From Eledone cirrhosa (lineage: Eukaryota): a stretch of 64,000 nucleotides of DNA. How positions within the stretch are numbered: position 1 is the stretch's first letter; each line of letters begins with the position of its first letter. Below, in pieces: positions 531-63,829 of this stretch. The stretch covers positions 33,728,001-33,792,000 of the forward strand of contig OZ024749.1 of the NCBI GenBank assembly GCA_964016885.1, read 5' to 3'. The translations under genes were made by a program, and so were the position numbers. The notes below the pieces were generated by a model that saw only the letters and a program-made list of their open reading frames with translations, was not told the origin of the DNA and ran no database searches.

Positions 531-722
531 ACGAAGGAAATGTGGTAAGGAACCAGGTGGACCATAACGCACCAAAGTACTCAATACTTAGGGTAGTAGA
601 GTGGGTAATAGGAACGAGTAGGACCCCGACGGCTGACCTCAAGCCGTTTCGACGGCTAATTCTGGACATGAATTAGCCGTCGAGACGGCTTGAGCTCAGC
701 CGTCGGGGTCCTACTCGTTCCT
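531..722 (-). mobile_element. (TA)n-embedded fold-back element, family F, copy 1
   Basis: acgaaggaaatgtgg...ctaattctggac followed by an inverted arm gaattagccgtc...ctcgttccta, with (TA)n on both sides. About 10 copies in the window. Confidence 0.85.
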
Positions 723-792
723 ATATATATATATATATATATATATATATATATATATATATACATACATACATACATACATACATATATAT

Positions 793-1388
793 ATGGTGAC
801 TGCCAACTCGTTTTCGAGTATGGCCACTACTTTATATCCATGTAGGAGAACCCCTACCGATGCGCTGAACGAGTGTGACTTTTTAGTCCAGCCAGCGACT
901 TTAAAACTCTGGTACTAACACTACACTTGTGACAATTATTGACACATAGTGCTGGGCCCATGGTACCATGTGATGACAAGTGTTGAGGGATTTCCAGATA
1001 TAAAGCAATGCCTGTGCCGTGAAGCTTTTGTAGTGAGCAAAGGCACTGCACAAAGTCAGTCCCACTCGCTTAACCAGTTGGTGCTACTGGTAACATGTAT
1101 CTCAGTACAACCTGTCTCATGGTCGGGTCGTTGGCGACTAAACTGGCAACCCCATCAAGGTTTCTTGGCGAGGAGGGTGACTTTGGACATTCTGCAGGAC
1201 TAAAAACAAAACCTGTTAAAGCGCAAAGGAGCTCTTAAGAGTCAATGGCCATCCAAAATCACCGGGAGAGATGACCCCTTGGCCTTTGTTAAGGCAGAAT
1301 TCTAAGAGAAGGAAAACTCTGATATAACACCTGCAACTCTGATGGTATCCAATGATGTTGACTTGTTCTTCTTTTTGGTAAATATCAT
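793..1388. mobile_element. Interspersed repeat next to (CATA)n/(TA)n, probably LINE-derived
   Basis: Highly similar to 8982-9590 and to the deleted derivative at 8596-8720. All share the boundary atggt(g/a)(g/a)ctgccaactcg. Confidence 0.7.
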
Positions 1389-1562
1389 ATATATATATAT
1401 ACATACATATATATATATATATATATATATATATATATATATATATATTTAATATTTTATCTTGACTCTGTATTCCGTTTATCTTTCACCGAAAGTGATT
1501 TTTCATTGCATCTCTTCTTTCCATGATATCCGGACTACATTGAGTTCTTCATACGGATTGGA

Positions 1563-2618
1563 CACACATATATATATATATATATATATATATATATATA
1601 TATACATACATATATATATATATATATACATATATATATATTTATATATATATATATATATATATATATATATATATATACATACATATATATATATATA
1701 TATATATATATATATACATATATATATATTTATATATATATATATATATACATATATATATATATATATATACATACATATATATATATATATATATATA
1801 TATATATATACATATATATATATTTATATATATATATATACATATATATATATATATATATATATATATATATATATATATATACATACATACATATATA
1901 TATATATACATATATATATATATATACATATATATATATATACATATATATATATATACATATATATATATATATACATATATATATATATACATATATA
2001 TATATATATACATATATATATATATACATATATATATATATATATACATATATATATATATATACATATATATATATATATATATATATATATATATACA
2101 TACATACATACATATATATATATATACATATATATATATATATACATATATATATATATATATATATATACATATATATATATATATATATATATATATA
2201 TATATATACATATATATATATATATATATATATATACATACATACATACATATATATATATATATATATATATATATACATACATACATACATATATATA
2301 TATATACATATATATATATATACATATATATATATATATATACATATATATATATATATATACATATATATATATATGTATATACATATATATATATATA
2401 TATATATATACATATATATATATATACATATACATACATATATATACATATATATATATATATACATATATATATATATATATATATATATATATATATA
2501 CATATATATATATATATATATACATATACATATATATATATATATATATATATATACATATATATATATATATATATATATATATACATATATATATATA
2601 TGTATATATATATATATA
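1563..2618. repeat. ~1 kb (TA)n/(TACA)n microsatellite
   Basis: Directly visible. It is the source of the spurious IY-repeat ORFs. Confidence 0.98.
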
Positions 2619-3574
2619 GCTTAAATAAATTGCCAAATACATTCGTATACATATGATTATTGCATGTAATCCATTCATTCTCCTAGAATAAATAGTGTCG
2701 ATTATTTACACAGTGAAATTCAATGTGTCTTTATTAAACATTCATATGTGAATTTAGTCAATATACCCCATGTGTGTGTGTGTGTGTGTGTGTGTGTGTG
2801 TGTGAGTGTGTGTGTGTGTGTGTGTGTGTGTGTGTGTGTGTGTGTGTGTGTGTGTGTGTGTGTGTGTGTGTGTTTCTGCTCCCCAGTCTGTGTGTGTATG
2901 TTTGTATGAGTATGCATACTGCTATAGAATTATTACAAGAGAGAAGTGCATTGATATAACTATAAGAAATAATTACAAGGTATGATTACATTGATATATA
3001 ACAATAAGATATAATTATGTGTACAGGGATGCCATGTTCATGTATATCCAACTCGCCTTTGGGAGGCATACAAATGTTCAAAAATGGCTGAGACTAAGAG
3101 AAATGACTAAAAACAGAAGATTTTCCATACAACCTCAATTTAATTACATGATGTAAATCAATTTATTCAGCAATAATATTTAAATATAGACATATATCAT
3201 ATTCCAGTATTTTCTTCGCGAGAACAAGATTTACAAATATAAATTTAAGTGCACAATACTTCAAATGTAGAATCTGATATATGTATGTAATATATATATA
3301 TATATATATATATATATATATATATATATATATATATGTGTGTGTATATATATATATATATGTGTGTGTGTGTGTGTGTGTGTGTGTATTTGTATATATA
3401 TATATATATATTATATATATGTATATATGTATATATATATATTATATATATGTATATATGTATATATGTATATGTATGCATCTATATATATTATGTGTAA
3501 TAAATCTTATTCGTCGCACCACTGATTCTCCGTTTCTTGTGTGATGTATATATATATATATATATATATATATA

Positions 3575-3785
3575 CAAAATATCCAAAGATCGACAATATT
3601 CATATGGCAGATATCATGTTACCTACAGAGTTTACCAAAGACCAGACACTAAATATCTATGGTAACATTATAACCAGTGAACAAGAGCAACATATTCTAC
3701 AACTACCACCAAAGTTCACTATACATAATAAGGTAAACCCAGTATGATGCTTGTCGGAAATTGAAAAGCCTTCACATATAATCCG
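3575..3785 (+). pseudogene. Decayed PLE ORF fragment (region upstream of the RT)
   Basis: Translates to ...TSEQEQHILQLPPKFTIHNKVNPV*CLSEIEK, resembling the 'E..lL.lgPKF....iE' segment N-terminal to Penelope RTs. Has an in-frame stop and follows (TA)n. Confidence 0.45.
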
Positions 3786-61238: not shown

Positions 61239-61355
61239 ATGAAGGGCTTATGCCCGAAACGTCGTCCCCCACCTACCCCCCACTCCCCTGAGCGTGAATT
61301 TAATAAACATTTATTGTACTGCCTCTCTGTTCTGTCCCTGTTCAATTTTTCATTA
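61239..61355 (+). mobile_element. PLE-type 3' end truncated inside its hammerhead core
   Basis: ATGA-a-gggc-ttat-gccc-GAAA-cg-TC, then aataaa, between (TA)n runs. Confidence 0.65.
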
Positions 61356-61610
61356 TATATATATATATATATATATATATAAATTGTTTATATATATATA
61401 TATATATATATATATATATGTGTGTGTGTGTGTGTGTGTGTGTGTGTGTGTGTGTGTGTGTGTGTGTGTGTGTATGTGTATGTGTGTGTTTATATAGATA
61501 GACAAATGAATCTATGCAGACTTTCTCTCTCTAAATATATATTATATATGAATTCATATATACCAATATCAGCTACCCTAATATATATATGTATATATAT
61601 AAAAATATAT

Positions 61611-61812
61611 AGGAAATGTGGTAAGGAACCAGCTGGACCATAACGCACCAAAGTACTCAATACTTAGGGTAGTAGAGTGGGTAATAGGAACAAGTAGGAC
61701 CCCCACGGCTGAGCTCAAGCCGTTTCGACGGCTAATTCTGGACGGCTAATTCTATGTCCAGAATTAGCCGTCGAAACGGCTTGAGCTCAGCCGTCGGGGT
61801 CCTACTCATTCC
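61611..61812 (-). mobile_element. Family F fold-back copy
   Basis: The apex carries a short duplication ggctaattct. Confidence 0.9.
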
Positions 61813-62409
61813 TATATATATATATATATATATATATATATATATATATATATATATATATATATATATATATATATATATGTGTGTGTGTGTGTGTGTG
61901 TGTGTGTGAATATATATATATATATATATATATATGTAGGAGTTGAGTTTTATTGTAGCACAATAAAGCAATGCAAATATCGGATAAGTAGCACTTATAT
62001 ATAATTGTTTGTACTTTTGGCACAAGGCTAACAATTACCCAGTGCATTACTGGTACTTTATTTTATCGACCCCGTAAGGATGAAAGGCAAAGTTAAACTC
62101 GGCGGGATTTGAACTCAGAATGGCAAGAGCCGTAACTGTATGCTGATTTAACACTTCACTGCTCGCAAGTGTTTTTTAAGCTTCATATCATGTCTCCCTA
62201 TTTTATCTGATGAGAACGCAAATATCATCCCATGATGATATTTGTTTTTGAAATGCGCATAATAAAATACATGGAACATTTTTAACCATCTTTTGATTTT
62301 ATATATATATATATATATATATAACGAAGGAAGTGTGGTAAGGAACCAGGCGGACCATAACGCACCAAAGTACTCAATACGAGTGTGTATGATTGTGTAT
62401 AGAAGATTA

Positions 62410-62932
62410 TATTAATAAAAGGAATTCCTAATTTGTCTGATTTACTCGTTTTATTTACAATCCTTTAAAATTTATAATGGTATTAGAATGAAATAGTATG
62501 GTAGAATATTAAATGTTAAGTGTTAATTGAACAAGTACTTTCATGCTTTCGCAATCTTCAGGTTCCGAATGTGTGGTGACAGTCAAGTTTGCAATTTTCA
62601 ACTGTGAAAATATACATATATATATATATATATATATATATATATATATATATATATATATATATATTCAACAGTATATATATATATATATACATATATA
62701 TATTCAACAGTATATATATACATATATATATATATTCAACAGTTGAAAATTGCAAACTTGACTGTCACCACACATTATGAACCTGAAGATTGCGAAAGCA
62801 TGAAAGTACTTGTTCAATTAACACTTAACATTTAATATTCTACCATACTATTTCATTCTAATACCATTATAAATTTTAAAGGATTGTAAATAAAACGAGT
62901 AAATCAGACAGAGTTGGAATTCCTTTTATTAA
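62410..62932. mobile_element. ~190-bp inverted arms around a (TA)n apex, each with a hammerhead
   Basis: 62410-62605 is the reverse complement of about 62739-62932. Confidence 0.85.
62778..62816 (+). ncRNA. Minimal type I hammerhead ribozyme (mirror copy at 62529-62565, -)
   Basis: tgaac-CTGAAGA-ttgc-gaaa-gcat-GAAA-gtac-TT-gttca, with a palindromic stem III. Confidence 0.8.
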
Positions 62933-63403
62933 TATATATATATATATATATATATGTGTGTGCATATATATATATATATATATATATATTTTAGGAATAG
63001 AATCTTTCACCGTATTTGTTTTACTAAAGAAATTTTAGCCTCATGACAAAGATAAGGGTTCAACTCCCCTGTACTCTATGAAATGGAAAATAGAAATTCT
63101 CATCTTTTTCCATTTCATAGAGTGTACTATCAGGCTAAAATGCCTTTAGTATAAAAAAAATACGGCGAAAGCTTCTATTTCTAATTCCAAAACACCCACC
63201 CGCACACGCATGTAAATATATATATATATAAACACACACACACACACACACACTCATATATATATATATATATATATATATAAATATATATATATATATA
63301 TATATATACATATATATATATATATATATATATATATATATATATATATATACATATATATATATATACATATCTATATCTCTCTCTCTATATATATATA
63401 TAT

Positions 63404-63829
63404 AACAAAGGAATTGTGGTAAGGAACCAGATGGACTATAACGCACCAGAGTACTCAATACTTAGGGTAGTAGAGTGAGAAATAGGAAAAAGTATGACCC
63501 CGACGGCAGAGCTCAAGCCGTTTCGACGGCTATTTCTGGCTATTTCGACGGCTATTTTCTGAGTCCAGAAACAGCCGTCGAAACGGCTTGAGCTCTGCCG
63601 TCGGGGTCATACTTTTTCCTATATATATATATATATATATATAGGAACAAGTAAGACCCCGACGGCTGAGCTCAAGCCGTTTCGACGGCTAGTCCAGAAT
63701 TAGCCGTCGAAACGGCTTGAGCACAGCCGTCGGGGTCTTACTTGTTCCTATTACCCACTCTACTACCCTAAGTATTGAGTACTTTGGTGCGTTATAGTCC
63801 ACCTGGTTCCTTACCACATTTCCTTCGTT
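63404..63829. mobile_element. Two family F fold-back copies in opposite orientation
   Basis: 63404-63620 and 63643-63829, separated by (TA)n. A fragment is also at 62323-62380. Confidence 0.9.

Follow-up and report, generated by a model that had tools for sequence, protein, structure and literature searches.

Family F is a set of very small repeats in the genome of Eledone cirrhosa, represented by nine loci in the 64,000-nt stretch analysed here (contig OZ024749.1 of assembly GCA_964016885.1, positions 33,728,001 to 33,792,000 of the forward strand; hereafter the window). F has probably been derived, as a non-autonomous element, from the tail and terminal repeat of a Penelope-like element (PLE) of the Hydra clade, and its hairpin is probably built at insertion by two priming events; the driver, transcript and mechanism are what we infer from the copies and their neighbours. 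The link to the Hydra clade is the new part of this proposal, the geometry itself having already been described. An inverted 5′ copy, a one-sided tail and a (TA)n target are known for PLEs in the descriptions given by PMC8557442 and PMC3846280, and the novelty of this geometry implied by the initial annotation of the window does not stand. PLE architecture is known, but we found no description of so small a unit, of its half hammerhead and preferred 5′ end or of the stem-loop in its tail. Searches of published papers returned neither this stem-loop nor the F family, which may already be catalogued in Dfam, in Repbase or in the PMC13282606 repeat library.

With one long arm of F used as the blastn query against the window, the 137-nt unit was matched at all ten coordinates named in the initial annotation, although the match at 62323 proved to be the tail of a hammerhead-bearing element (H1), which leaves nine F loci. 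Divergence from the majority sequence is 0–5%, rising to 9–10% at 63404; the 10% computed for 18188 is an artefact of a misaligned deletion. Arms facing in opposite directions occur at seven of the ten coordinates (531, 22163, 49036, 54321, 61611, 63404 and 63643), or seven of nine once 62323 is left out, and all of these except 54321 are true hairpins. In every two-armed locus the short arm runs into (TA)n at unit position 57–60, confirming the earlier observation that the inverted copy stops at the internal TA, and the tail of ~80 nt is present on one arm only. Of the 20 outer ends, 19 adjoin alternating TA runs of 6–78 nt; the chance of a random non-TA position adjoining such a run is 1.3%. 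Any target-site duplication would be hidden in the (TA)n. The apex sequence differs in all six hairpins, as had been noted, but the letters at 18188 that had been counted among the apexes are upstream parent sequence: 12 nt (18277–18288) joined to (TA)n, with the same letters recurring in the loose ends of sequencing reads. Both arms reach unit position 1 at 22163, the filler at 49036 contains a duplicated 11-mer, and the long arm at 54321 begins at unit 50, so that its arms overlap by only 11 nt.

Terminal inverted repeats are absent from F, as just 3–6 of 15 terminal bases match in the seven two-armed loci, and this rules out a miniature inverted-repeat transposable element (MITE) or another TA-targeting DNA transposon. 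The four full F arms tested have no B box, no T4 run, A5 run or poly(A), and a loose A-box match only (position 104 or 64), which rules out a short interspersed element (SINE) transcribed by RNA polymerase III (Pol III). The initial annotation had excluded both classes for want of these features, and rightly so. Helentrons and Helentron-associated interspersed elements (HINEs), which have sub-terminal inverted repeats and a terminal hairpin, are argued against by the variable 5′ truncation of F. Open reading frames (ORFs) across the unit were taken as chance. There are no tandem F units among the window copies and no complete ribozyme in F; Rfam gave no hits on the window at gathering threshold, and for one F copy, at E up to 10, it gave 26 hits below threshold, most of them to generic hairpins and none to a ribozyme.

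The genome-wide picture comes from sequencing data, four of the 19 runs listed being used for mapping onto positions 49030–49176 of the window. They comprise raw restriction site-associated DNA (RAD) reads of organism A (X17; 23,574 of 12.5 million records mapped), contigs of the same organism (X1; 17,772 mapped), and sequences of organisms B (X4; 3 mapped) and C (X7; 5 mapped). Clipping at unit 60 with (TA)n beyond was seen in 3541 X17 reads and 91 X1 contigs, and the long end of F continues into TA at ~9,500-fold read depth; both 3′ ends are therefore family-wide. At 49166 a total of 7182 reads terminate, probably through restriction cutting at an AATT that is present in both arms, which means that the reads under-represent symmetric hairpins and do not allow their share to be counted. 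Among the best-supported rows of the mapping, beyond which there are 329 more, six of the nine opposite-strand joints connect unit position 1 (within 2 nt) to arms that start at 37, 54, 64, 66, 82 or 97. The reads also commonly show a sister subfamily whose head ends differently. The data imply at least thousands of F copies; anything beyond 10,000 would be extrapolated from libraries that are biased.

The 5′ end of F at G1 is preferred, not absolute. Of 15 arms containing some part of the head, nine start exactly at G1, four at 3–10 and one at 50, and one extends upstream. The strictly fixed 5′ end previously claimed is thus not supported as it stood, given 18188 and reads of three organisms. 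Loose ends past unit 1 begin with the AT-rich letters of 18188 in 1032 X17 reads (agreement 0.45), 110 X1 contigs (0.49) and two X4 sequences (0.77), and two X7 reads have similar letters (0.83), from which it follows that a longer parent of F exists. An end this sharp, preceded by AT-rich sequence, looks more like a genuine RNA terminus than like a structural stop. We lean slightly towards G1 being an RNA polymerase II start site, given an initiator-like TTAG at −3 to +1 and AT-rich sequence near −30 in a consensus of two contigs, and runs of four to five T in common subfamilies argue against Pol III. Other origins of the end were considered but are not supported. Hammerhead cleavage was rejected as the source of G1, GAAA being absent from the 30 upstream nt seen; a hepatitis delta virus (HDV)-like end, which calls for a P1 helix from G1, P1.1 and a catalytic C, would have a best P1 of six of seven pairs, two of them wobbles, with no GG after it and no Rfam ribozyme hit; and for a splice acceptor at G1 the upstream stretch is pyrimidine-rich, yet the junctions have no shared first exon.

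Two features of the unit, neither of which appeared in the initial annotation, point to the Hydra clade. The first lies in the head and corresponds to the 3′ half of a type I hammerhead: C-GAAA, a stem III of 6 bp capped by a palindromic loop, GUC and a purine-rich stem I strand. It sits 17 nt before the internal TA, which, compared by eye, is the place of Hydra hammerheads. The CUGANGA half was found neither in four full F arms nor in the 12–30 upstream nt seen, and none of the nine F loci is an ORF-linked copy. A complete type I hammerhead is lacking in F but present in two neighbouring elements, H1 and H2, where its layout is that of the Hydra entries in the supplement of PMC8557442. The long arm of H1 (−) ends in the last 57 nt of F (55 of 57 identical), and its short arm (+) stops at the internal TA. 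The H1 apex (62607–62737) is TA-rich and contains several short fragments copied again from the end of the arm, which recalls the stuttering in F fillers. Since F lacks a complete hammerhead and an ORF, we file it as derived from a Hydra PLE and moved like one, rather than as a member of the clade.

The second feature is a bulged stem-loop in the tail, predicted to be the recognition site of the reverse transcriptase (RT). It is also present in the tails of H1, H2 and the hairpin at 17947–18118, and was sought with two patterns, both designed after the first cases had been seen. A structure search with 17 hits in all placed the stem-loop 38–56 nt before a TA run at nine places in four unrelated families, five of the nine being F copies (null mean for such places 0.27, maximum 2 in 200 shuffles), and a degenerate tail motif gave ten hits, all 42–52 nt before (TA)n, where 0.35 were expected. 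Only these stricter patterns were enriched, an exact 11-mer with two mismatches showing no enrichment over shuffles (21 vs 37), and MAFFT alignment of nine tails did not bring the stems into register. Among the six Hydra consensi taken from PMC8557442 the stem-loop is clear by eye in three (Hydra-2_Amil, Hydra-2_Ajap and the 5′ start of Hydra-1_Ajap), with inner pairs that differ among them. Further single-copy elements in the window end in (TA)n and have the same tail motif or stem-loop 45–86 nt before the end; the five listed in Table 1 are likely other Hydra-type tails.

To judge from its sequence, a broken RT fragment in the window shows that the candidate driver clade is present in this genome. 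The fragment has 67 longer homologues at 37–55% identity, a Hydra-type C-terminal endonuclease region was recognised by eye in two of the three retrieved, and the fragment itself matches, again by eye, the Hydra alignment of PMC8557442. The earlier proposal of a non-autonomous RNA moved into (TA)n by a Penelope-type enzyme is supported as the likely reading, with the driver narrowed to the Hydra clade. Pfam returned nothing on four window fragments and nothing relevant on five homologues, and no ORF combining RT (DKT) with a C-terminal GIY-YIG occurs in F. Metagenome and viral contigs gave no hits to a 22-nt F pattern, and no Hydra-related locus was found in metagenome contigs; 54 prokaryotic hits to an 18-nt pattern were dismissed as chance, the longest alignment to the unit being 22 nt.

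Table 1. Positions of F copies, their structural features and related (TA)n elements in the window.
Feature	Position	Strand	Details
F hairpin 531	531–721		Long arm 531–667 (−, unit 1–137); 2-nt filler; short arm 670–721 (+, unit 6–57)
F single arm 18188	18188–18288	−	Unit 77–120 deleted at 4-nt microhomology
F hairpin 22163	22163–22358		Short arm 22163–22219 (−); 2-nt filler; long arm 22222–22358 (+)
F tail only 48957	48957–48994	−	Unit ~100–137; 5′-truncated into (TA)n
F hairpin 49036	49036–49242		Long arm 49036–49172 (−); filler; short arm 49190–49242 (+, from unit 5)
F inversion 54321	54322–54466		Complete short arm 54322–54378 (−); long arm 54379–54466 (+); no filler
F hairpin 61611	61611–61812		Long arm 61611–61743 (−, ends at unit 133); 12-nt filler; short arm 61756–61812 (+)
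F hairpin 63404	63405–63619		Divergent subfamily; 5 variants common to both arms; filler re-copied twice from head
F hairpin 63643	63644–63828		Short arm 63644–63691 (−, from unit 10); long arm 63692–63828 (+); 2 variants common to arms
F head, hammerhead 3′ half	49126–49162	−	Unit 11–47; layout compared with Hydra hammerhead table by eye
F tail, bulged stem-loop	49084–49107	−	Unit 66–89; 4 bp, 2-nt bulge, 4 bp, AC-rich loop
H1 (locus 62323)	62324–62932		Head-to-head; complete Hydra-type hammerhead in each arm
H2	57364–57568		Hairpin; complete Hydra-type hammerhead; palindromic apex; ~70-nt one-sided tail; same stem-loop
Hairpin with unrelated head, in (TA)n	17947–18118		~72-nt one-sided tail; F-type stem-loop
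Broken Hydra-clade RT fragment	31325–32483	+	DKT motif; between (TA)n runs; separate from F
Single-copy element	50398–50600	+	Likely Hydra-type tail
Single-copy element	25943–26077	+	Likely Hydra-type tail
Single-copy element	50167–50290	−	Likely Hydra-type tail
Single-copy element	49260–49470	−	Likely Hydra-type tail
Single-copy element	51476–51600	−	Likely Hydra-type tail

According to the mechanism that we propose, the F RNA would start mostly at G1, and a Hydra RT/endonuclease would bind the stem-loop of the tail and nick both strands of a (TA)n array. One nick would prime at 137–139 and the other at the internal UA (58–60), so that the two sites flank the stem-loop. Both cDNAs would be extended toward the 5′ end of the RNA and their 3′ ends joined head-to-head, with filler that is either untemplated or re-copied. 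An early stop of the long-arm cDNA would give an inversion, as at 54321, while single priming would leave a lone arm, as at 18188 and 48957. The fillers at 49036, 61611 (all 12 nt) and 63404 are further copies of head sequence, running with the same polarity as the long-arm cDNA; such fillers are expected from template-end slippage or end-joining. At both informative loci the two arms share subfamily variants, five at 63404 and two at 63643; these variants are also common in the reads, and the arms thus stem from the same subfamily template.

The alternative that survives best, although we consider it unlikely, retains the PLE driver but needs only one priming. In this scheme the cDNA of the long arm bends back on itself close to its 3′ end and serves as its own template, the second arm being ended at unit 58–60 by the endonuclease or by TA microhomology. 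Self-priming of this kind has already been proposed for inverted PLE junctions in PMC3846280 and agrees with the variants common to both arms, and the loops at 531, 63643 and 49036 (7, 9 and 21 nt) would allow the fold-back. The H2 apex is palindromic, and by eye the upstream loose end of the sister subfamily can pair with the head as a small hairpin. However, the loop at 22163 is just 2 nt, and short arms contain bases that are missing from their long arms, namely unit 1–49 at 54321 and, though only 2 nt, unit 1–2 at 63404. Read joints also tie position 1 to arms starting beyond 60. The junctions at 22163, 54321 and 63404, the read joints and the biochemistry of Poseidon (see below) therefore favour two primings over snap-back, and the previous claim that the arms are made at insertion is probably correct.

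We regard it as improbable that F is no separate family but the shortest, start-site-limited form of a long autonomous PLE that has lost half of the hammerhead from its terminal repeat. In favour of this, copies extend upstream of G1 both at 18188 and in reads that carry related letters in three organisms, and the Penelope promoter is placed inside the terminal repeat in PMC2377424. Hydra elements are nevertheless reported in PMC8557442 to have complete hammerheads throughout, in contrast to the missing CUGANGA here, the upstream sequences of the main and sister subfamilies differ, and the F loci are without linked ORFs.

Derivation from the 3′ end of a Naiad element, and mobilisation by Naiad, has very little in its favour. 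Cephalopod Naiads do target (TA)n, with CGAAAC ~110 nt from the end and CTGATGA 21–22 nt after it (PMC8557442), and loose ends of reads from the F sister subfamily have CTGA 24 nt after CGAAAC, so that the spacing of the core halves is similar by eye. In several Naiad 3′ ends of the PMC8557442 supplement (ctenophore, coral, box jelly and octopus) CGAAAC precedes CTGATGA, a permuted order that might represent a type II-like hammerhead. The cephalopod Naiads are described in that paper as long inactive, whereas F copies are 0–5% divergent. Moreover, seven F motifs of 8–13 nt have no exact Naiad match beyond the generic GAAAC core, and the F tail matches Hydra-type elements instead. Palindrome centres are revised in animal genomes and the F fillers resemble end-joining products, both of which could be counted in favour of a hairpin inherited from a foldback or DNA element, or from a hairpin master RNA, with apexes diverging later through repair of the palindrome centre. 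This is scarcely credible for an element that lacks terminal inverted repeats, occurs as lone, truncated and upstream-extended arms and shares its one-sided geometry with unrelated families, and the inverted repeats of Penelope likewise vary in size from copy to copy (PMC2377424).

Despite this, a number of points weigh against two-site priming by a Hydra enzyme. The junctions at 531, 49036 and 63643 fit snap-back as well, post-insertion deletion at the palindrome centre could mimic both 54321 and the read joints, and each opposite-strand joint is supported by just 1–5 read starts. H1 may be a one-off chimera. No autonomous element was found to carry the F tail, which leaves resemblance as the ground for naming the driver, and the F tail is ~80 nt long against the 30–40 nt described for PLEs. 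Hydra-1_Amil and Hydra-1_Crog have a loose form of the stem-loop, which was not seen in the octopus Hydra-1_Obim consensus of PMC8557442; it is also absent from the predicted minimum-energy folds of the whole F unit, which folds no better than its shuffles (z −0.5 to 0.6). As to the 5′ end, the case for a start site consists only of the TTAG and the AT-rich stretch near −30 of that two-contig consensus, and no clear downstream promoter element was seen in F.

An internal inverted repeat is present in 20 of the 122 segments between TA runs in the window; apart from F they include H2, the hairpin at 17947–18118 and the GIY-YIG fragment described below. Further inverted-repeat segments between TA runs lie at 41941–42757, 21044–21258, 53890–54073 and 62990–63215. 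A GIY-YIG fragment with a CxxxxCxxC linker, probably Neptune-like, lies in (TA)n at 32562–34082 between inverted terminal repeats, which have a hammerhead-like core and a ~40-nt tail; related pieces are found at 21329–21843, 22745–23973 and 36100–36176. At 57760–57810 (−), 61241–61356 (+) and 50664–50740 (+) lie hammerhead cores or ends with CGAAAC, as is typical of PLE terminal repeats, two of the three being truncated against (TA)n. Elsewhere, a tandem array with a period of 126 nt (12477–16296) is open for >1,200 codons in several frames, one of which is Thr- and Pro-rich (mucin-like). An abundant 190-nt repeat, partly tandem and a putative octopus SINE, is found at 76–214 and about 20 other places, and another repeat is present at 794–1386 and 8597–9582, in part inverted between its two copies.

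It is possible, and we put it forward tentatively, that F is a minimal SINE-like passenger of Hydra-clade PLEs whose conserved stem-loop docks a dimeric RT/endonuclease that primes both strands of (TA)n at the flanking sites, the cDNAs then being joined head-to-head. If so, two-site priming would be the general rule by which PLEs acquire an inverted arm and a tail on one side, without any antisense template, and the thousands of F copies would form a natural catalogue of reaction products. With a template of 137 nt, a sharp 5′ end and two start sites that do not vary, the PLE problem comes down to junctions that can be counted, and the F RNA is small enough for in vitro testing. Should the tail stem-loop be the recognition site, it would be a cis element common to Hydra-type elements across phyla, and many short ‘unknown’ repeats flanked by (TA)n could be classified. 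In twin priming of L1, a second internal primer gives an inverted 5′ piece, and 54321 has the shape of such a product. F differs from L1 in having a fixed second site and in that its two cDNAs usually extend to the 5′ end, which duplicates the head.

Among PLEs, insertions often have an inverted, 5′-truncated copy at the 5′ end and a 30–40 bp tail on one side, (TA)n is targeted by Naiad and Hydra elements, and the way in which inverted repeats and tails form and microsatellites are targeted is named as an open question (PMC8557442). F resembles the Hydra-clade set of Craig et al. (2021; PMC8557442), which includes Hydra-1_Obim of Octopus bimaculoides, in its (TA)n target, its head-to-head inverted 5′-truncated copy, the tail on one arm, the hammerhead 3′ half near the unit end and, for three of six consensi by eye, the tail stem-loop. 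Unlike the elements described there, it has no ORF, half a hammerhead, a length of 137 nt instead of 2–2.6 kb, a preferred 5′ end with near-perfect hairpins, and the longer tail. Short cis sequences that suffice in trans and head-to-head junctions are also features of the solo and inverted pseudo-long terminal repeats (pLTRs) of Penelope in Adineta vaga (PMC3846280), for which head-to-head and solo pLTRs and self-priming were reported, and of MRC1-type Chlamys (PMC8557442). In the accounts cited, however, these pLTRs and non-autonomous Chlamys elements are low-copy or head-to-tail, whereas F is tiny, abundant and mostly two-armed. Non-LTR retrozymes (bioRxiv 10.64898/2026.07.22.740005) are, like F, non-coding and hammerhead-related, with a proposed origin in PLE terminal repeats, but F is not tandem and its hammerhead is incomplete. 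The closest biochemical counterpart is the purified Poseidon PLE of the green anole, PAc (Frangieh et al., 2024; PMC11167929), a predicted dimer that cuts and extends both strands and whose tail is defined by two internal start sites. F is similar in that two internal RT start sites would define the tail and both target strands would be used, with a start near an AC-rich stem-loop and no need for hammerhead cleavage. Poseidon PAc, as characterised there, belongs to another clade, is autonomous, has an AT-rich target and primes without homology, whereas F has TA at both of its start sites.

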